This document shows, piece after piece, positions 1 through 9,407 of a stretch of DNA of 53,208 nucleotides (within the stretch, counting starts at the first letter, position 1; each line of letters starts with the position of its first letter). Made by a program: the position numbers and the translations under genes. Origin of the DNA: a virus (lineage: Duplodnaviria; Heunggongvirae; Uroviricota; Caudoviricetes); the IMG/VR virus record IMGVR_UViG_2671181011_000016; one strand, given 5' to 3'. The notes under the pieces are model-generated. The model was given only the letters and a program-made list of their open reading frames with translations. It was not told the DNA's origin and did not search any database.

Positions 1-2259
1 TTATTCTTCGCTTCCTGTTAACTGCCGGACAAGCGCTTCAAGTTTAGTGATCCGCTCATCCATGACGGCAATGTTAGCGCGTAAGCTGGCGTTTTCCTCT
101 TCCAGTTCGGTGACGCGGTTATCTGTTTCGCGTGCCACCTGGACAAGTAAACCAGTCACCGCAGCGTAGTCAACATTGAGGTAACGCGTTTCCTCGCGTA
201 GCTCGTTGCCGTCAGTGGTCGGGCCTTGTAATGCTTTACCGTAATGAGTAAACGATCCCACAGCCTCCGGCAGCGCCTCCATTACCTCTTGAGCGATAAC
301 GCCAGCGTAAGGCAGGCCGTTTTCCTTGAGGGTGTAGGTGTACCCGTTCATTTTACGGATTGCTTCAGTTGCATCACCTATAACCTGAATGTTGTCCTTC
401 AGATCGCGATCTGAAGTCTGATTAACTGCTGTGCAGTTTACTACGCCGTTAACCTGAAAACTAATTACTCCGTCTGGGTTAAGCTGGCAATAAAAGCCAT
501 ATGTATTATACTCATCGGTTTCAGCGTTCGAGAGTCCATATTCTAAAACGGACTGCCTTGTTTCTGATCCCCATAAGCGTAACCGTGCGTTTGTTTTTGC
601 GTTTTCTATCACATCGATAGTTAAACGTCTTGTGAAATCATAAGAGTTAATTTTTGTCGTCACAAAATGCTGGCCGGCAGTCCATTTTTGACCGGATGTG
701 TTAAGCGTAGCTAGTTGACGCCATTCCTGAACTGTTCCGTTTTCAATTGTTCTACCCCAAAAACCGGAATTTCGACCTCCGAATTGCACAGCGTAATTTG
801 TGCTGTATTGCGCATGGAAGCCGCCAAGCACCATTGCTCCGGCGGGGCCGTTTGTACTTCCCGCCATTGGGATAAATTTTTGGATATTGTCGGTGTGCTG
901 AGTATTCCAGTCCCTTCCTGTTTTTACGAGTACACCTAAATTTGCGTCTAGCGCCTCAGCTAACGTAAGGTTTTTGAATTTAACCGCATTGCTTTCACCA
1001 AGATTTAAATTATTTCTCGCGTCAGATGCTGTTAGCGCACCTGTCCCACCCTGGGATAATGACAAAGGAACCCATCCAGATCCGTTATGACAACCCCACA
1101 ATCCAGATGTTGACACCTGAAGGCGTGGCGCTTCTGGTAAATATTTCGAATAAACGTAAGTGGTGGATTCGCCTTCTTCAACTCTTTCTATTAATACTAT
1201 TTTTTTCCATGCGGTCCAACCTTGTGTGCTGGTATGTGTCCTTGCATAAAAAATTGATGAATTGTTATATACAAAATATTTCTGGATACAACCATCACTA
1301 CCATTAGCACCAGTTCTTTGCACTAACAACGAGCCAGCAAGCTGTATAGGGTAGTTTAATTCAGGTTTTGCGTTTACTGATAACGATTGATGATAAAAGC
1401 CTGCTGCGTTCCCTTTTAAGTCATCAAGATTCTGGCTATCGCTAAGGGTAGTTTTTGCATCATGCATAACCATTAGGTTTTTTCTTGCTTCTGCTTCATT
1501 CCCTGCACCAGTACCGCCAGCAGAAATTGAAAGCGGTATATATTTACTAGCCTCTGAGTCGAAACAACCCCACGAGCCGGAATCGTAGACGGTAAGGAAT
1601 TTATTTGCGTTTTGAGAGCATACGCGCGTTTCTCCTGTCCTCTGAACAAGCCTGTCTACTTCATTTTTTTTTGCGTGACGCGTCCAGTTAGCGCCTGATG
1701 TTGCGACCCATGTATACGTATAAAGTGATCGCGTAGCCCAACCGACAAAGACGCCTGTATATGAAGGCACTGTGTCTCGCTGACAGATAAATCCACTCAA
1801 AAATGATTCGCCAGCCGCTACGGAAGGAAAACCCTTAGTCGTTTCCTTTATGCGCAAAAAGCCAACGTAAGAAGACGGATCGCCTGATATATCGGCGCAA
1901 TCTCGCGGCTCTGGCCCCAAGCCAATATTGCTGCCATCTATTGCGCTGGATATTTCATCTTCCTTTTCCTGATAAAAACGAAGCGTTTCCGCTACATCCT
2001 GGGCAAGCCCATCAACTGAGATAGAGTCAGAAAGCAGAATGCTGAATTTTGCCCCGGCAGCAATTGCAGGGTTAGCCGCTGGCGTCACTGACAGTTCAGT
2101 GCCGCTCTTGATTTCAGTAACGGTAAAGATCTGAATAGGGTTGCTAATAGCAATAAGCGTGCAACCAACACGGATAAGAGAAAGCGGCGCGGAGAAGTTT
2201 GTGCCCGTGCCTTTAACAGTGTTGCCATTGATGGCAATTGTTCCAGTTGTGTAAATCAT
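1..2259 (-). CDS. tail fiber protein with C-terminal intramolecular chaperone (self-cleaving, peptidase S74-like) domain
   Basis: 752-aa ORF with stop at window start; Gly/Ser/Thr-rich body; C-terminus (...RYLNVDYAAVTGLLVQ... then coiled coil) resembles chaperone domains of phage fibres; last gene of the tail operon. Confidence 0.65.
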   Translation of the reverse strand: MIYTTGTIAINGNTVKGTGTNFSAPLSLIRVGCTLIAISNPIQIFTVTEIKSGTELSVTPAANPAIAAGAKFSILLSDSISVDGLAQDVAETLRFYQEKEDEISSAIDGSNIGLGPEPRDCADISGDPSSYVGFLRIKETTKGFPSVAAGESFLSGFICQRDTVPSYTGVFVGWATRSLYTYTWVATSGANWTRHAKKNEVDRLVQRTGETRVCSQNANKFLTVYDSGSWGCFDSEASKYIPLSISAGGTGAGNEAEARKNLMVMHDAKTTLSDSQNLDDLKGNAAGFYHQSLSVNAKPELNYPIQLAGSLLVQRTGANGSDGCIQKYFVYNNSSIFYARTHTSTQGWTAWKKIVLIERVEEGESTTYVYSKYLPEAPRLQVSTSGLWGCHNGSGWVPLSLSQGGTGALTASDARNNLNLGESNAVKFKNLTLAEALDANLGVLVKTGRDWNTQHTDNIQKFIPMAGSTNGPAGAMVLGGFHAQYSTNYAVQFGGRNSGFWGRTIENGTVQEWRQLATLNTSGQKWTAGQHFVTTKINSYDFTRRLTIDVIENAKTNARLRLWGSETRQSVLEYGLSNAETDEYNTYGFYCQLNPDGVISFQVNGVVNCTAVNQTSDRDLKDNIQVIGDATEAIRKMNGYTYTLKENGLPYAGVIAQEVMEALPEAVGSFTHYGKALQGPTTDGNELREETRYLNVDYAAVTGLLVQVARETDNRVTELEEENASLRANIAVMDERITKLEALVRQLTGSEE

Positions 2260-2436: not shown

Positions 2437-2685
2437 ATGAAAAACGTGTTCAAAGTGGTTTTGTTCGCTGCGGCTGTAGCTCTTACTGGCTGTGCTGTTG
2501 ACAAAGAGGCTGCATTGCATAATCTGCCGAATAGCGGAGTAATTCCACAAGATGTCGTCTATGATGGCAGCGGTCATCTTGTCTATGACACTGAAAAACT
2601 GCCGTATACTGGGCAATGGTGTCATGAACTCGATCACAACATGCGCCGCATCGGTAGCCCGTCGAATTGTGTAGCTAACTACTAA
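2437..2685 (+). CDS. small lipoprotein (candidate Cor/Llp-type superinfection-exclusion protein)
   Basis: 82 aa; signal peptide with lipobox LTGC; two Cys in the mature part; opposite strand to flanking tail genes; function inferred from context only. Confidence 0.7.
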   Translation: MKNVFKVVLFAAAVALTGCAVDKEAALHNLPNSGVIPQDVVYDGSGHLVYDTEKLPYTGQWCHELDHNMRRIGSPSNCVANY

Positions 2686-2717
2686 AAGAAAACCCCGCGC
2701 GAAGCGGGGTTGTTTTT
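2684..2717. terminator. bidirectional rho-independent terminator
   Basis: A-tract, hairpin CCCCGC-GCGAA-GCGGGG (2693-2709), T-tract; sits between the convergent lipoprotein and J genes. Confidence 0.75.
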
Positions 2718-5700
2718 ATCCTGAGAATGAACCAGAACCGCGCGACACAATGACGGTCGGCGAGTTTATATATGCACCCCTACTATTTTGAGCGGATACC
2801 CTGATTTTAACCGTAACGCCCCTGCTAGTTACCGATGATGAGTGCATAACAAGGCGCTCGTCGCCATTCATAGACAGACTTTTCTCTGAACTGCCGATGA
2901 TTATCGTACAACCACCAAAACCTTTAACGTTTGCCATGACGCAAATATGTCTGCTGTGCGCTGCATTAGATGTGTCATTGTATGTGATTGTTTTTTCCAG
3001 TACTCCATCGGCTAACCTGCTGACGTCGGATCCTGTGTACATGTTCGCAACGTCACCTATAAAGGTTTTAGCCTCAAGTGAACCAGAAAATTTACCGCTA
3101 CTGGCGTGCACTTCACCTCTAACAACAACATTGTTAAATTCAGATGATCCGTCTTTTGTTATCCTCCAACCATTCGAACCAGCGACATAGTTTGATGATT
3201 TTATTTCATTAACAATTTTAGCCATAGTAATGGCTGCATCCGCAATTTTAGCTGTCCCTATTGATGCATTTTTAATAAACGCTTCTTTCACATACATTGC
3301 ACCGTTAGACACATAGAAAGGCGTTGTATATGTGCCGTTTGCTGCAGTCATCAATACGAAGCGGTCAACAAGGAAAATACACTGCGATTGAACGTTAGTA
3401 CCGTTGCCAGTCAGCCCAAGTGACATACCTGTTGCGTACTTCATGCCGTTGTTGTCGGTTGCCAGCTTGATAGAGTACGTCGCATCAACATTACCCTTGA
3501 AGTCGGTTAACGCTTTTGACGTCGTTTCTATTGCTGTTGTGTTCCCGTTAACGGTCACTGTTAGTTGATCGATCTTGCTTGATAGTGCCTCGTCAGCCGT
3601 TGCCATAGCCTGTGACCATTCTGTAATGCTTGAGTTTACAGAATCGAAAGACGCTGAGATCTGGCCGAATTTTTCCGCGCTTGATGCCTCATGCGTAGAA
3701 AGCGCCGTTGATACCTCAGACACCTTCGAGTTTATCGTGCTGGTAAGCGATGAGTTAAGGCTACTTATCGCGTCAGTGCGTGCCTTCGTTTCGTCTGCAA
3801 TTGCCTTGTCAATACGGGTCACGTTGCTTGTAACTTTGCCATCAAGGGTTGAAATTGACGCATTCACGCCGCTGATGGCTTGTGCTCTGGCACTGGCCTC
3901 GTCAGCAATTGCCTGGTCCAGTCTGCTAACTTCGGATTCAGTGTTGCTTTCAAGCGTGTTGATGCTTGCGTTCACACCGCTGATAGCCTCACTTCTTGCG
4001 CTGGTTTCGTCAGCGATTGCCTGGTCTAAGCGCTTAACGCTGGCGGCGGTTTTCTTGTCGAGCGCTGAAATGCTTGCGTTAACGTCGCTTACCGCCTCGC
4101 TGCGTGCGCTGGTTTCGTCAGCGATGGCCTTGTCAAGTCGTGAAACGCTGGCGTTTGTGTTACTTTCGAGCGTTGTTAAATCAGCTTTGACCTCTGTTAT
4201 TGCGTCGCTTCTTGCCTGCGTTTCGTCAGATATTGCCTTATCGAGTCTGCTCACGCTGGCGTCGGTTTTGCTTTCAAGATTGCTTATTGAGGCATTAACG
4301 CCGCTGATTGCCTGCGCACGGGCGCTTGATTCGTCAGCGATTGCTTGATCAAGGCGGTTCACGCTGGCGTCAGTTTTCTTGTCAAGATCAGCGATCGATG
4401 CGTTCACGTTATTAATTGCTTCTGCGCGGGCGCTTGATTCGTCTGCCACTGCGCGTTCCACGCTGGAGATCTGACCCTTAAGGTTGGAATCCATCGTGTT
4501 CATTTCTGCCGTGATGGTTTTCAGCGATTCAGCCGTGGCCCGCTTCTCTTCGGCAATAACGTTGTCGATGCGGTCAATCTGCGCGTTTGTTTCTGATTGC
4601 CCTTTCTTGTACTGTGCAGTGAGCGTAACCCGCGTGTTGGTCTGCGCGAGAGAGTTATTAATCAGCGCCAAAGATGCGTTTTGCAGGCTTGCTTTTGCTT
4701 GCGCCAGTTCGCTGTCGATTCTTTCGCTGGATACCTCTAGCGAGTCAATCCTTACCTCATGTTGCCCAATACCATCGGTGTTTTCACCAACCTTTTTATA
4801 AAGATCTTCCGTCTCTTTTTTCAGCGTGTCAGTGTCAGCTTTTATTTCACCTGTTTCTGTGATTAAGCTGTCAGTGTCAGTCCTCAATTCGTCAGTGATG
4901 TTTGTCAGGTTGTCAGTTGCAGTTTTTAGGTTGTCAGTAGCGTTTTTAAGGTCATTTGTGGCGCTTTCGATAAGGTCGGCACGGTCGCCAAGATCTTTAA
5001 TGTCGCCAATCATGTCCTTGAACTGTTCTGACTCCATGACATCCTTCATCACGTAGTCGCTGATTTCGTCGAAGTTTTCAGTCGGTTTTCCTGATGCCTC
5101 AACGAAGTCTGACACACCGAAAGCGTTACGCGTGCGCACATAAACGTAATATTTATGGCCCGTGTTCATGCCGCCGAAAGTCCATTGGTAGCCGCGCCCG
5201 GTGAATTGCGCCAAAGTTGTTACTTTTGACGGGTCAGTGATCTGATTTTCACCTGAGTAGTAAAACTCATATGCTGTATCAGTTGTCAGGGTTGTTTTGC
5301 TGATCGGATACACTGTTGCCTGGAAAACGCCAGGAACCCAATTAACACCAATCGGGGCGGCTGGCGCACCAATGACCAGATCCACAATACTTTCCGCACC
5401 CTTCATGCCAGTGTCATTACGCCCGCGAATACCAAGCGTGTAGCTGCCAGCGTCGAGGCCATAAAAATCATAGCGGTAGTTCGTGGTTTCATCAGTTGCC
5501 ACTACACGCCCATCGGCGTTATATACGCGAATTTCAAAGGTCAGGCGATGCGTTGTTGTCTGTGTTTCCCACGTTGCGCGACATTGAACAGTTTCAGAAC
5601 CAACATTTAACACCTTCAGGTTTTCGATGTTCGGCACGCGGAAGTGATTAAGCGTGTCGTTGTTTACCTCGAAGATTGCGCCTTCATCAACTACAGCCTG

Positions 5701-7482
5701 TTTGTGTGGATCGTGCTGTGCAGCCTCGATGGTGTACACGCTGTTATTTTCGGTTTCTGCTACGCTAGTGATTCGACACAGAACAGGTTTTGCAGATTCA
5801 GTAGACACGGCGAATACGGTTCCGTTGCGGATCCATGCTGGCGCTTCCGCAAGGGTAATATTGTTTCCGTTAACCCCAGTGATCTGATGTTTTTTGAACT
5901 TGCCGTCGCTGTCCAGTAAGCTGATAGTGTCGCCAGCCGCCACCAGGTCAGAATCAACCTTGTCTACAGTTATCACCTTCCCGTTATTCGCAACGATGCG
6001 ACCGCCCAAACGAGCGCCAGCGCGGTTATTGTCGAGTATCTCGATAATATCCCCTGGCGTGAAGTGAATTGCGTCACGGGCCATTTTAAACGTGAATTTT
6101 GAGGGTTCGCGTTTTGCTGTTTCTATCAGCCATTTGCCAGCGCGGTACGCCTGCCCGCGTGACGTGCAACCGAAAGCCTCCAACGTGGTTTCGTTGTAAC
6201 CATCGCGGGCGATCAGTTCGTCATCTGCCACGTATTCTTTTGATTGTTCCCAACCGTTTTCCGGGTCAGTCCATGACACGATCACGGCGTTGTAAGATTC
6301 TGCGCGGGCGATACTTGAACGAGTAAACGCACCATCAACGACATTAGCATTTGTGATGGTGGCAATTGGATCCTGCGGCGCATCAATCATCACAGTAAGG
6401 CGCTGCCCGTCCCATAACGCGATACCACGGAACATACCTGCAATGTTGTCCAGCAAGTCGCGGGCGCTCATTTGCTCCGTGATGTAAGCGTTAAGCGTCA
6501 TGCGTGGTTCAAGGCCACCGTAACCGTCGTTCACCAACTGGTCGCAGTATTGAGAAAGCGTATACAGTGCGCCATCATCAACGTCGATGTAACCAGCGTG
6601 GCGGGCAAGCCCGAAGCGTTCATTTTTCACCAGATACCGGAAAAGCCATGCAGGGTTATTGGTGTATGCCTTTTTAAAGCCACCAAGCCATAAACCTGAG
6701 TACGTGCGCGTTTCCGGGTCGTAGTTATCAGGCACGTCAACAATCAGGCCGCGCATGTGATAAGTACGTGTCGGCGTGTCAGTATACTGATCGTGGTCAA
6801 TTACCGCGCCTGCTACAGCGGTGTGAGGATAAGATAAATTATCGTCGATTATCTCGCTGTAACTGCTCCACCTGGTGTCGTTGTGAAGTAGATCGCCTGT
6901 GCTGTCTGGCGTTACGCGACGAACGCGAATATCAAACGGTTTTTCATCCGGCGCTTTGATGATGTGCGCTTCGAGGTACTCACCGCTTTGTTTACCCGGG
7001 CCGATGTGAATATCTTTAACCAGTGACCACGTTGTTGAAGATGAAGGCTTAACGTCAACCATCAACGTAACGGATGTATTGTATTGATTGCCCTTATCAT
7101 CTGACTGAACCAGAGAATCAACGCCAAGATTCAGCCTTACGCGGTTAACGTTTGGATCTGAAACGGTCCTGATTATTGGCGTATCGTGAGTCACTTTTGC
7201 GTTGACAATAACGGTTGATTCAATGGCGTTGAAGCCATTGATTGGTGACTGGTCAGCCGTACCATTACGCCACGCCACACTAACGCCGGGGACTGATGTA
7301 CTGCCGTCGCTACCAGTGATAGGCGTGTCATTAAGCATTACGCTGTTTAATGGCGCTTTCTGGTTTACAGGGCCGTATATTGGGCCTTCGCTGAGAATGT
7401 CCAAAACACGATAAAACTGTTTGTGGAACAGGTTATCGTTTAATAGTGTTGGTGTTTTGGCTTTGCCGCCGCCGCTACTCAT
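2716..7482 (-). CDS. J: tail tip attachment / host specificity protein, lambda J-like, with expanded coiled-coil repeat region
   Basis: 1588 aa; N-terminal half aligns by eye with lambda gpJ (ILSEGPI.GPV, PFDIRVRR.TPDST, TLNAYITEQ, EAFGCTSRGQAYRAGKWL); C-terminal part also J-like around the repeat insertion. Confidence 0.85.
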   Translation of the reverse strand: MSSGGGKAKTPTLLNDNLFHKQFYRVLDILSEGPIYGPVNQKAPLNSVMLNDTPITGSDGSTSVPGVSVAWRNGTADQSPINGFNAIESTVIVNAKVTHDTPIIRTVSDPNVNRVRLNLGVDSLVQSDDKGNQYNTSVTLMVDVKPSSSTTWSLVKDIHIGPGKQSGEYLEAHIIKAPDEKPFDIRVRRVTPDSTGDLLHNDTRWSSYSEIIDDNLSYPHTAVAGAVIDHDQYTDTPTRTYHMRGLIVDVPDNYDPETRTYSGLWLGGFKKAYTNNPAWLFRYLVKNERFGLARHAGYIDVDDGALYTLSQYCDQLVNDGYGGLEPRMTLNAYITEQMSARDLLDNIAGMFRGIALWDGQRLTVMIDAPQDPIATITNANVVDGAFTRSSIARAESYNAVIVSWTDPENGWEQSKEYVADDELIARDGYNETTLEAFGCTSRGQAYRAGKWLIETAKREPSKFTFKMARDAIHFTPGDIIEILDNNRAGARLGGRIVANNGKVITVDKVDSDLVAAGDTISLLDSDGKFKKHQITGVNGNNITLAEAPAWIRNGTVFAVSTESAKPVLCRITSVAETENNSVYTIEAAQHDPHKQAVVDEGAIFEVNNDTLNHFRVPNIENLKVLNVGSETVQCRATWETQTTTHRLTFEIRVYNADGRVVATDETTNYRYDFYGLDAGSYTLGIRGRNDTGMKGAESIVDLVIGAPAAPIGVNWVPGVFQATVYPISKTTLTTDTAYEFYYSGENQITDPSKVTTLAQFTGRGYQWTFGGMNTGHKYYVYVRTRNAFGVSDFVEASGKPTENFDEISDYVMKDVMESEQFKDMIGDIKDLGDRADLIESATNDLKNATDNLKTATDNLTNITDELRTDTDSLITETGEIKADTDTLKKETEDLYKKVGENTDGIGQHEVRIDSLEVSSERIDSELAQAKASLQNASLALINNSLAQTNTRVTLTAQYKKGQSETNAQIDRIDNVIAEEKRATAESLKTITAEMNTMDSNLKGQISSVERAVADESSARAEAINNVNASIADLDKKTDASVNRLDQAIADESSARAQAISGVNASISNLESKTDASVSRLDKAISDETQARSDAITEVKADLTTLESNTNASVSRLDKAIADETSARSEAVSDVNASISALDKKTAASVKRLDQAIADETSARSEAISGVNASINTLESNTESEVSRLDQAIADEASARAQAISGVNASISTLDGKVTSNVTRIDKAIADETKARTDAISSLNSSLTSTINSKVSEVSTALSTHEASSAEKFGQISASFDSVNSSITEWSQAMATADEALSSKIDQLTVTVNGNTTAIETTSKALTDFKGNVDATYSIKLATDNNGMKYATGMSLGLTGNGTNVQSQCIFLVDRFVLMTAANGTYTTPFYVSNGAMYVKEAFIKNASIGTAKIADAAITMAKIVNEIKSSNYVAGSNGWRITKDGSSEFNNVVVRGEVHASSGKFSGSLEAKTFIGDVANMYTGSDVSRLADGVLEKTITYNDTSNAAHSRHICVMANVKGFGGCTIIIGSSEKSLSMNGDERLVMHSSSVTSRGVTVKIRVSAQNSRGAYINSPTVIVSRGSGSFSG
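3760..4460 (-). repeat. in-frame tandem repeats (about 7 copies of a ~105-bp / 35-aa unit) inside J
   Basis: Protein shows repeated units SVSRLD(K/Q)AIADE(T/S)SARSEAISGVNASI...; the antisense ORF track shows matching periodic LALVSSAIAWS units; boundaries approximate. Confidence 0.7.
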
Positions 7483-7495
7483 GGTTTTTCTCCTG

Positions 7496-8026
7496 TTAAC
7501 TTACAACGTCAAGGGCGTCTCTGTTGTTATTTGTGTCTATGCCTAACGATCCGACGTTTGAACCTATTTTCATTTCACCCAACAGGATCGGCACTGGTCT
7601 ACCCTGTCCCACCTTGTTTTCGATGCTGGTGTAGGTGTTGTTAGATATGGTGTTATCTTGTGCGCTTTCTGCTGATGTTTTTATCTTCATGTTGCGAGAC
7701 ATAAAGATCGAGAACGCAACGCTAACAACCGAAACACCGATCAAAATCCAGCCTACAACGCCAATCCCTGCAATACCGCCTTCCACCACTGGCGCAACAA
7801 TGACGGTAGTCCCGTCCGGGTATTTACTGTTAACCGCTGCGGGCGCGGTCTTTTCGTCATAATCCTTTCCGGCAATTCGCAAGCGCAACGGGGTGCTTAA
7901 AAACGCCTTTTTGAACTCATGATTCTGCGCAACCAGCAAGCCAAGCCCCTGCGCTGGCGTATCAACGTTTAAACACACTTTGCCGTAATATCTTCGAAGA
8001 TTGCCCGTAAATCTAAACTTGAGCAT
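7496..8026 (-). CDS. I: tail assembly protein, lambda I-like
   Basis: 176 aa; hydrophobic Gly-rich central segment and C-terminal ...VGQGRPVPILLGEMKIGSNV similar to lambda gpI ...VAQGNVLPVLYGEMRVGSRV; position between K and J. Confidence 0.65.
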   Translation of the reverse strand: MLKFRFTGNLRRYYGKVCLNVDTPAQGLGLLVAQNHEFKKAFLSTPLRLRIAGKDYDEKTAPAAVNSKYPDGTTVIVAPVVEGGIAGIGVVGWILIGVSVVSVAFSIFMSRNMKIKTSAESAQDNTISNNTYTSIENKVGQGRPVPILLGEMKIGSNVGSLGIDTNNNRDALDVVS

Positions 8027-8700
8027 TTGTCAGATCTCCATATTGAATTGGTCTGTCGAACATACGCGGGCCGCATTTGCTCGCGGCGGCTTAACAGTCC
8101 GGCATTGTCATGATGCAAAACAGTGTTATCGCCCAGGTAAATCATCGCGTGACATGGGTCAGCGCCTTTAAACGGCTGACGGATAATCACATCACCAGGC
8201 TGAATGCTTTTCGCGTCAACCATGAAAAACCCGTTCAATGGCAGGTTTTTTATGTACAGGTTTTCCCCACGCAGCCACCACCCATCGTGGCGCTCAAAGT
8301 CCGGTAGATCCACGCCGCACAGGTGATAGGCATCACGGAAAAGCGAATAGCAATCTGTTTTCCCGTGCTCAAATTTACGGCCCAACAGGTGCGCCACCGG
8401 GCGGAATTTTCTAACCCTGCCACCGGAACACAAATACCACGGCAGGCCGGAAATAACCTGCTGTTGTCGATCCCGCGCTGACAATACCAATGAATCATTA
8501 GTATGTGAGTGGAAAACGGCTGTTATAACACCCAATTCGTCAGCTTTGATATAATCGTCAGGCGAGATTTTAAAGCTGTTGTGCGGCGTTTCAGACACGT
8601 TAGCGCACGGGTAAAAATAATCGTTATCTATCACCAGCCCGCACACTTCCTCGCGCGGGTGGGCTGCCGCATAGCGAATCATTTTATCTTCAAGTGCCAT
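7969..8700 (-). CDS. K: tail assembly protein, lambda K-like (JAMM/MPN plus NlpC/P60 domains)
   Basis: 243 aa; JAMM-like HSH..D motif (AVFHSHTNDS) and C-terminal Cys-containing NlpC/P60-like part; position between L and I. Confidence 0.7.
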   Translation of the reverse strand: MALEDKMIRYAAAHPREEVCGLVIDNDYFYPCANVSETPHNSFKISPDDYIKADELGVITAVFHSHTNDSLVLSARDRQQQVISGLPWYLCSGGRVRKFRPVAHLLGRKFEHGKTDCYSLFRDAYHLCGVDLPDFERHDGWWLRGENLYIKNLPLNGFFMVDAKSIQPGDVIIRQPFKGADPCHAMIYLGDNTVLHHDNAGLLSRREQMRPAYVRQTNSIWRSDKCSSLDLRAIFEDITAKCV

Positions 8701-8702
8701 AA

Positions 8703-9407
8703 TTAACCGACCTTACTGGACCCAGGGAAGCAGGAAATCGGTAACGGATTCGGGCGCGGGAAACGCAAACGGCAACCGCTCAGGCGGTGGCTGCACTTAT
8801 CCAGCTTCGGATCACTGGTGGGTTCGTCTTTCTCAGTAGCTACAGGGCCGCCACTGTATCCGCAACCGTCGCCGCGATATTGCCATTGGCAAACGTCAGC
8901 GAGGATTGTGCGCCCTGGGATAACCGCCTTGTCAGCATCAATTGGCGTTGATAGTTCATATTGCACCTGGTCGGCTGTTTCTTCGCTCATCGCCTCAACG
9001 ACGTAAAAAGATACCGCCTCGATAGACGGATCTGCATCAGGGTTGCCATTGGGGAAGTTGACAGCGTCCAGGTATTTTACTTCCACCTGGCGGCGCGTAA
9101 CCTTCATTCCTCGCAGGTCGTTGAAATCGTTATTCATCCCGGTGATTAGCCCGCCAATGTTGGCTACAACCATTTGGGGGCGTGAGTAAACGCCTTCGTT
9201 TTTCATTTCGAAGCCAGTAGCCTCGATTGGGTAGCTGTTGTAAGTCACTCCCTTCCAGATAACCGGGCCGTAATAGCCATTCGCGCCTGAATGGAAGCGG
9301 ATAACCTCGCCACCCAGTGGCGTGAGGTCTAATTCAAACAAGTCAATTACCGCGCCGACTCCGGCATCCACGGAATCAATAATCATTTCTGTAGGTATGC
9401 TGCGCAT
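8703..9407 (-). CDS. L: minor tail protein, lambda L-like
   Basis: 234 aa; strong by-eye match to lambda gpL (RFLDAVNF.NGN..ADP, C.W.YRGD.CGYSG, DKCSK.LSGC). Confidence 0.85.
   Translation of the reverse strand: MRSIPTEMIIDSVDAGVGAVIDLFELDLTPLGGEVIRFHSGANGYYGPVIWKGVTYNSYPIEATGFEMKNEGVYSRPQMVVANIGGLITGMNNDFNDLRGMKVTRRQVEVKYLDAVNFPNGNPDADPSIEAVSFYVVEAMSEETADQVQYELSTPIDADKAVIPGRTILADVCQWQYRGDGCGYSGGPVATEKDEPTSDPKLDKCSHRLSGCRLRFPRPNPLPISCFPGSSKVG

Follow-up and report, generated by a model that had tools for sequence, protein, structure and literature searches.

A tandem repeat array lies inside the J gene of a tailed phage (Duplodnaviria; Heunggongvirae; Uroviricota; Caudoviricetes; IMG/VR virus record IMGVR_UViG_2671181011_000016), of which we analysed a stretch of DNA of 53,208 nucleotides (nt), called here the window. 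We consider it likely that this array extends, in modular fashion, the alpha-helical shaft of the central tail fibre formed by J, and that recombination between units changes the length of the array. This reading is built on the anatomy of the repeat, the divergence of its units, a predicted helix with a matching periodicity, a position equivalent to that of the AHS of lambda J and of the coiled coil of F-type pyocins, and a length polymorphism that proceeds unit by unit. The array is real, in-frame and ancient, and it is an ordinary member of a known, published kind and not an assembly error.

J is encoded by a 4767-nt open reading frame (ORF) on the minus strand (window 2716-7482; all J features below are on this strand). 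The frame is intact across the array and yields a protein of 1588 residues. Translation, Pfam domains and homology all mark the gene as that of a lambda-type tip attachment protein J, or central fibre protein. Its hub and FNIII/Ig domains (aa 1-803, window 5074-7482) are collinear with those of lambda J, with Pfam matches to FNIII-A_GpJ (PF24801, aa 88-214, E 8e-36), Phage-tail_3 (PF13550, aa 335-492, E 1e-28), Ig_J (PF24421, aa 609-707) and Ig_J_second (PF24489, aa 709-811). The closest solved structure is lambda J (PDB 8iyk, E 3e-182, aa 1-851). By BLASTP, residues 1-850 aligned with lambda residues 1-857 at 38% identity and residues 1314-1478 with lambda residues 841-997, leaving about 460 extra residues between the two blocks, of which the array makes up 252-288. 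The insertion relative to lambda J described in the initial annotation was thus recovered and, since lambda J aligns on both flanks, the extra residues replace the lambda AHS. The order of domains is that of the lambda type: two Ig/FNIII domains, a helical shaft, a beta-prism tip and a C-terminal receptor-binding domain. The array had been placed before the receptor-binding region, and it is indeed N-terminal to it. The two do not adjoin, being separated by a linker of about 60 residues and by the Phage_Tail_Tip domain (PF09327, aa 1317-1464, window 3091-3534, E 1e-37), the beta-prism or central straight fibre, which was also seen as a beta meander in the AlphaFold2 (AF2) model and by Foldseek. 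The variable C-terminal receptor-binding region (aa 1465-1588, window 2719-3090) is the least conserved part of J among relatives.

The period of the array is exactly 36 aa (108 nt), as found by repeat search, by motif positions and by in-register slicing, and not the ~35 aa (105 bp) first reported. The peptide quoted in the initial annotation, SVSRLDKAIADETSARSEA, is present in J, and its count of about seven units was right. Seven clear units span aa 1003-1254 (window 3721-4476), slightly more than the region 3760-4460 that had been indicated, and each of them matches a hidden Markov model (HMM) of the unit at 57-69 bits (E 1e-19 to 1e-22). In protein order these are unit A (aa 1003-1038, window 4369-4476, 58.7 bits), unit B (aa 1039-1074, 4261-4368, 67.3 bits), unit C (aa 1075-1110, 4153-4260, 62.7 bits), unit D (aa 1111-1146, 4045-4152, 64.4 bits), which resembles the second-block unit D of phage mEp010, unit E (aa 1147-1182, 3937-4044, 69.0 bits), unit F (aa 1183-1218, 3829-3936, 66.4 bits) and unit G (aa 1219-1254, 3721-3828, 57.1 bits), a terminal type kept in nearly all relatives. 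They are preceded by a degenerate lead-in unit H (aa 967-1002, window 4477-4584), which begins AQIDRIDNVIAEEK, matches the model at 8.4 bits only (E 9e-4) and shares 19-36% aa identity with the other units. Upstream of H lies a 46-aa pre-array segment (aa 921-966, window 4585-4722), single here and duplicated as a "spacer" in relatives with two blocks of units. The unit consensus is ASVSRLDxAIADETSARxxAISxVNASIxxLxSKTx, with A9, D12, E13, A16, R17 and A20 invariant. Alanine and serine together make up 35% of the composition, which includes no aromatic residue. Between the array and the beta-prism, a conserved non-repeat helical linker (aa 1255-1316, window 3535-3720), modelled as helix to aa 1301, is 91-99% identical to that of six of seven relatives and aligns with the F2-pyocin tail fibre (PDB 25vf).

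The units had been described as nearly identical, and in this they differ from what we found. Any two of them are 28-78% identical in aa and 47-72% identical in nt, and in register no exact nucleotide match exceeds 21 nt. Tandem Repeats Finder (TRF), the check proposed at first, recovered only 2.0-2.6 copies with 74-79% matches, so that by either measure this is no near-identical tandem repeat; the units are too diverged for TRF, and counting them required the protein HMM. Between units, the synonymous difference pS averages 0.70 (0.57-0.83) and the non-synonymous difference pN is 0.32. Because pS averages 0.70, near saturation, the units are by this measure old, diverged duplicates. A recent expansion disagrees with these values and with the recurrence of the same unit types across phages. 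This bears on two other accounts of the array. That its copy number was collapsed or expanded during assembly, a risk raised in the initial annotation, is exceedingly improbable. All that speaks for it is that tandem repeats are, in general, a risk for assemblers, and with so little exact repeat (47-72% nt identity, exact matches of 21 nt at most, frame intact) collapse or expansion is implausible. Moreover, 10 contigs of 50 kb to 1 Mb that were assembled independently encode the very same 1588-aa protein, which is also listed at NCBI as an Escherichia coli prophage J, and complete E. coli genomes contain comparable length variants, the homologous matching span ranging from 1743 to 2613 nt for one 2001-nt query. 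The second account, a recently expanded, slippage-prone contingency repeat changing length frequently within the phage population, is scarcely more credible. Closely related J backbones do often differ in unit count, as this account would have it. However, synonymous sites are saturated, unit types are common to several phages in a conserved order, and TRF barely finds the array. With exact homology tracts this short, the changes look like occasional homeologous or inter-phage recombination and not like slippage.

Two features of the opposite strand also map to the repeats. A TTG-started ORF of 257 aa (window 3575-4348, plus strand) runs antisense through the array and is most likely a by-product of a repetitive, stop-poor antisense frame, not a gene. 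In GenBank, ARNold Rho-independent terminators are annotated antisense inside the J repeats of mEp554 (locus L001, 4689-4727), mEp044 (L002, 4685-4731) and mEp515 (L006, 5684-5722); these are probably false positives arising from the repeat sequence.

The length of the array varies among related phages, as the comparison suggested in the initial annotation was meant to reveal. Homologues were collected with the full-length J as query, an array-only word-indexed search having returned just 6 proteins because low-complexity candidates crowded it. The set comprised 128 related J proteins, 120 of them beyond eight phages that include that of the window. Counted with the unit HMM, these eight carry 12 units in mEp554, mEp044 and mEp021 (7+5, with the 46-aa spacer between), 9 in mEp010 (4+5), 7 in the window phage, 4 in mEp515 and MagusPhagus, and 3+1 in mEp013. 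The 120 further relatives carry 4-14 units, and longer proteins have more of them (r 0.90), with a slope of 40 aa per unit. In global alignments, all array indels measured 36, 72, 108 or 118 (36+46+36) aa. More than 60 architectures occur among the 128 proteins, all built of shared unit types, and the first and last types are common to nearly all arrays, with G or Z last in nearly all. Of the protein pairs that share at least 99% identity over their first 800 aa, 66% have different unit counts, a proportion inflated by the 90% clustering of the database. These whole-unit indels agree with the variation of fibre length by recombination that had been anticipated.

One such change can be followed in the window. 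Its array reads ABCDEFG, that of the commonest relative HABCI-(46)-JDEFG, and the former is the latter minus the I-(46)-J block, i.e., 354 nt. Against mEp010, the alignment shows a 118-aa gap at query position 1110, and the junction coincides with the 3' boundary of unit C (window 4152/4153). There, the window DNA tracks the left copy of mEp010 until 9 nt into the next unit, and from about 20 nt further on it tracks the right copy. By these alignments, the 354-nt difference is an in-register crossover at a unit boundary, and we infer a deletion here rather than an insertion elsewhere. The 46-aa spacer plus unit J duplicates the pre-array segment plus unit H (in mEp010, 36 of the 46 residues of pre-array segment and internal spacer are identical), and the two-block form is thus a higher-order duplication. 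Unit number showed no link to receptor class, LamB users having 4, 9, 12 and 12 units and OmpA users 12 and 4. Nor was it related, in the eight phages, to the length of the side-fibre gene (449-1160 aa from annotated coordinates).

A long coiled coil had been predicted for the array, and structure prediction and periodicity both agree with it. The hydrophobicity spectrum of the array has one dominant peak at 3.60 residues (power 199 versus 88 for the next; shaft range 3.54-3.60), which corresponds to 36 residues in ten turns; the core positions are 3, 6, 10, 13/14, 17, 21, 24, 28, 31 and 35. AF2 was run on monomers. From the single sequence (aa 967-1480), it gave helix at 968-1137 and 1144-1329 with a pLDDT of ~75. 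With a 12-row alignment (aa 1147-1500), it gave one helix from 1148 to 1301 (pLDDT 77-92), followed by a beta meander from 1305. A repeat-derived alignment of four-unit windows was dropped, since its diversity (55-86% identity) was too low to serve as a deep alignment. For the model from the 12-row alignment, the top Foldseek matches were 8xcj and 8xci, both of the lambda central tail fibre, and 7z4b, the tip fibre of SU10. Altogether, the models and the periodicity support a nearly straight coiled-coil shaft running into the beta-prism tip domain. The whole predicted shaft, the counterpart of the lambda AHS, covers aa ~804-1301 (window 3580-5073), its N-terminal limit being set by the BLASTP alignment. 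Its packing would be that of a trimeric coiled coil by analogy with the J trimer in PDB 8iyk and with the lambda AHS. At the top of the shaft, a small heptad repeat of the TDNLKxA type (aa ~844-864, window 4891-4952) was detected by TRF with a period of 21 nt. This stretch is acidic and threonine-rich, and it also varies in length, being 14 aa longer in mEp554, mEp044, mEp021 and mEp515 and 21 aa shorter in mEp013 and MagusPhagus.

Against 1.84 billion representative proteins, the unit profile matched just 74 clusters at E <= 1e-3, many of them of 1000-2000 aa. Six of the matched proteins were scanned with Pfam; two were of the J type, three had no Pfam match and one was a YadA-anchor trimeric autotransporter. 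Repeat periods among the profile matches were 36, 18, 33, 40 and 47, all of which can be built up from 7s and 11s. Two fainter candidates were set aside: SF-assemblin/beta-giardin (PF06705), whose 25.3 bits fall below the cutoff of 30.6 and reflect generic coiled-coil similarity, and PF28217 "FAM81B", a faint precomputed match dismissed as coiled-coil noise.

We compared the shaft with known systems. In lambda, three helices bundle to form the AHS (residues 809-861), which lies between FNIII-2 and the beta-prism and whose C-terminal half turns into beta strands on LamB binding (PMC11101478; PDB 8xcj, 8xci, 8iyk). It occupies the same position as the window shaft and has homologous flanks, but it measures 53 residues versus ~500, and the 36-aa repeat is absent from lambda. 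F-type pyocin central fibre proteins (CFPs; F7 residues 921-1083, and F2) have, like the window J, a long helix directly upstream of a homologous tip domain, and the F2-pyocin fibre (PDB 25vf) aligns with J residues 1161-1418 (E 5e-27). The window J also carries an SxSxxMxxLxS-like pattern, a statistically weak match, and an E/R pair spaced i, i+4. It differs by its regular 36-aa tandem array and by a helical region about three times longer than the pyocin coiled coil. Finally, the unit profile matches a YadA-anchor protein with 18-residue repeats, and the stalks of YadA-family trimeric autotransporters share with the J array a near-3.6 periodicity and a variable repeat number in a trimeric surface fibre. 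This likeness is an analogy or at most a distant motif similarity, because the domain architecture is not shared and J is a phage protein.

From these data, the following picture can be proposed. Each 36-residue unit would form ten helical turns with heptad and hendecad spacings, and three J chains would assemble into a nearly straight trimeric coiled coil. Each unit may then add ~5.3 nm, seven units ~37 nm, and the whole shaft (aa ~804-1301) could reach ~74 nm if fully extended, possibly serving as a spacer that sets the beta-prism tip and the receptor-binding domain at a distance from the tail hub and gives the fibre its reach. The units are old paralogues of distinct types, between which in-register unequal (homeologous) recombination, within a genome or between co-resident phages or prophages, could alter the length of the array. 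Whole units or blocks would be gained or lost in this way without breaking the helical register, and the ABCDEFG array of the window may represent the common two-block (H)ABCI-46aa-JDEFG form that lost I-46aa-J (354 nt). Several points weigh against this picture. The direction of the 354-nt event is taken solely from the majority arrangement. The protein database, being clustered at 90% identity, gives distinct length variants too much weight. In the single-sequence AF2 model, the helix folds back at aa 1138-1143. With monomer predictions and this fold-back, the fully extended 74-nm rod is an assumption. We dismissed the helical hairpin as a monomer artefact, as it was absent from the alignment-based model. 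Lastly, the paper on the mEpimmI phages gives tails of ~130 nm and makes no mention of a long central fibre (PMC11893012).

Two other functions for the array were weighed against that of a modular shaft. The repeats, or the 46-aa pre-array node, could be a docking scaffold to which side tail fibres or accessory virion proteins bind, the number of units or blocks setting the load. The F7 pyocin depends for its particle integrity on three side-fibre trimers, which bind to an acidic gap in the coiled coil (bioRxiv 10.64898/2026.01.28.702463). The window J has an acidic heptad stretch in its shaft and a 752-aa side-fibre gene with a Peptidase_S74 chaperone domain just downstream, and the 46-aa node is duplicated in two-block relatives. 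By likeness to the F7 pyocin, it may be speculated that the heptad stretch could be a candidate docking site for the side fibre. However, the length of the side-fibre gene does not follow unit number in the eight phages, and the units are uniformly helical, with a single predicted break in only one monomer model. We regard docking as quite unlikely. The other proposal concerns a change of fold. The coiled coil of the shaft would be metastable and, upon receptor binding, would turn into beta-prism, with the neighbouring tip-domain strands as the nucleus. The fibre would become shorter and the tail tip would open, and the change would power the ejection of tape measure and DNA, with unit number setting the stroke length or the stored energy. 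We hold this to be unlikely, though worth retaining. It is compatible with the modular shaft and would add to it, and it is kept here as an open possibility and not as a conclusion.

The fold switch is modelled on the F7 pyocin CFP, in which a 163-residue coiled coil (921-1083) becomes a beta-prism and drives ejection, and an AlphaFold-based approach, CF-random, predicted both coiled-coil and beta-prism for 21 of 24 siphophage CFPs (bioRxiv 10.64898/2026.01.28.702463). In lambda, AHS residues 841-861 turn to beta strands upon LamB binding (PMC11101478). The window shaft is in the equivalent position, its helix ending at aa 1301 and strands starting from 1305, and J is homologous to the F-pyocin fibre across this helix/beta junction (F2, PDB 25vf). 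In 7-8 of the 8 units, the SxSxxMxxLxS pattern occurs twice, reversed at position 1 and forward at position 16, with L and M at predicted core positions and S at Ala/Ser. The invariant E13 and R17 are spaced i, i+4, and the Ala/Ser-rich composition lacking aromatics also fits. As a regular expression, the pattern gave 27 matches versus 7.1 ± 2.6 in shuffles of the region, the units not being independent. The motif is loose: when the consensus unit was shuffled, 6% of trials contained both orientations without overlap and 62% contained at least one. Nor is its recurrence across units independent evidence. Its spacing gives ~18 residues per strand versus ~27 in F7 (by arithmetic from 163 residues and 6 strands), and the E13/R17 pair is off the M position of the motif. 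Both AF2 monomer runs yielded helix only, a weak test given that the published approach used trimers and deep alignments. A switch of 250-500 residues would far exceed any observed, and lambda and T5 do without an extensive switch (He et al., bioRxiv 10.64898/2026.01.28.702463). In its most ambitious form, the whole array would zip from trimeric coiled coil into beta-prism on receptor binding, with two strands per unit, and the 4-14 units would tune the stroke or energy of a non-contractile tail. This form we find doubtful. If true, the mEpimmI phages would be a ready allelic series for the F7-pyocin mechanism in a real phage.

The modular shaft belongs to a group of coliphages already described. 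The J DNA of the window is 84-92% identical, over 85-100% of the gene, to that of mEp554, mEp044, mEp010, mEp013, mEp021 and mEp515, and that of MagusPhagus shares 82% nt identity with it. ORFs in the positions of I, K and L lie upstream of J on the same strand (7496-8026, 7969-8700 and 8703-9407), and Phage_tail_L and NLPC_P60 were found by Pfam on the L and K counterparts of an identical locus, L009. The order L-K-I-J is that of a lambda-type tail module. The same neighbours, i.e., L, K, I, J, a convergent lipoprotein gene and a side fibre, are found in the mEpimmI relatives. Judged by J identity and these neighbours, the window phage is a member of the published mEpimmI (mEp021) group. In mEp021 and mEp515, a 567-nt ORF is present between I and J (L005 and L006, both 1937-2503), annotated as a putative HNH endonuclease in the former and as hypothetical in the latter. 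The I-J gap of the window is 13 nt (7483-7495), and this mobile-looking insert is absent from it.

Within the mEp group, the tip of the window J is nearest to those of the LamB-dependent mEp554, mEp044 and mEp013, receptor assignments being those of PMC11893012. The end of J (window 2716-3112, last ~130 aa) also shares 83.5% nt identity with "tail fiber protein" genes of Cronobacter phage CSP1 and Escherichia phage CSP1C. In the same nucleotide search, the rest of J had no match to either phage. As the match is confined to the end of J, it suggests that the tip module is exchanged between phages.

Downstream of J, a 752-aa ORF occupies window 1-2259 on the minus strand, with its stop codon at 1-3. 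Its equivalent in L009 bears Peptidase_S74, an intramolecular chaperone, by which its product would be the side tail fibre. Between the two genes, an 82-aa ORF (window 2437-2685, plus strand) converges with J. It begins MKNVFKVVLFAAAVALTGC, with a lipoprotein signal and an LTGC lipobox, and it stands in the position of "lipoprotein" or hypothetical genes of relatives. We take it as the probable superinfection-exclusion lipoprotein that has been discussed for the mEpimmI phages. A bidirectional terminator-like hairpin (2691-2711) is common to this ORF and J.

The mEpimmI paper reported that J proteins vary in size and contain "repeats of different length (positions 950-1,475)" (PMC11893012), and our literature search for earlier descriptions of J tandem repeats found nothing relevant beyond it. 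Those proteins and the window J share the same gene, domain order and neighbours, with variable repeats between a conserved N-terminal part and a conserved C-terminal stretch. The window J differs by its single block of seven units, the six characterised mEpimmI phages having 4, 4, 9, 12, 12 and 12, mostly in two blocks. The text of that paper does not contain the definition of the unit, the unit types, their register and age, or the junctions. As a structural feature of an already published group of coliphages, the array is ordinary, and it gives no warning on assembly quality. Its value is practical and lies in a clean description of the module, in which 36-aa units of ten helical turns fall into distinct types and recombine in register, with the first and the last unit fixed. 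J backbones that are otherwise near-identical carry natural alleles of 4-14 units, with LamB-type as well as OmpA-type tips. This series is usable to ask how the length of the central fibre affects adsorption through O-antigen or capsule layers, and it could show whether a siphophage also makes use of the coiled-coil-to-beta-prism switch recently shown for F-type pyocins, and whether the switch scales there. The modular register also suggests that fibre length may be engineerable in one-unit steps.

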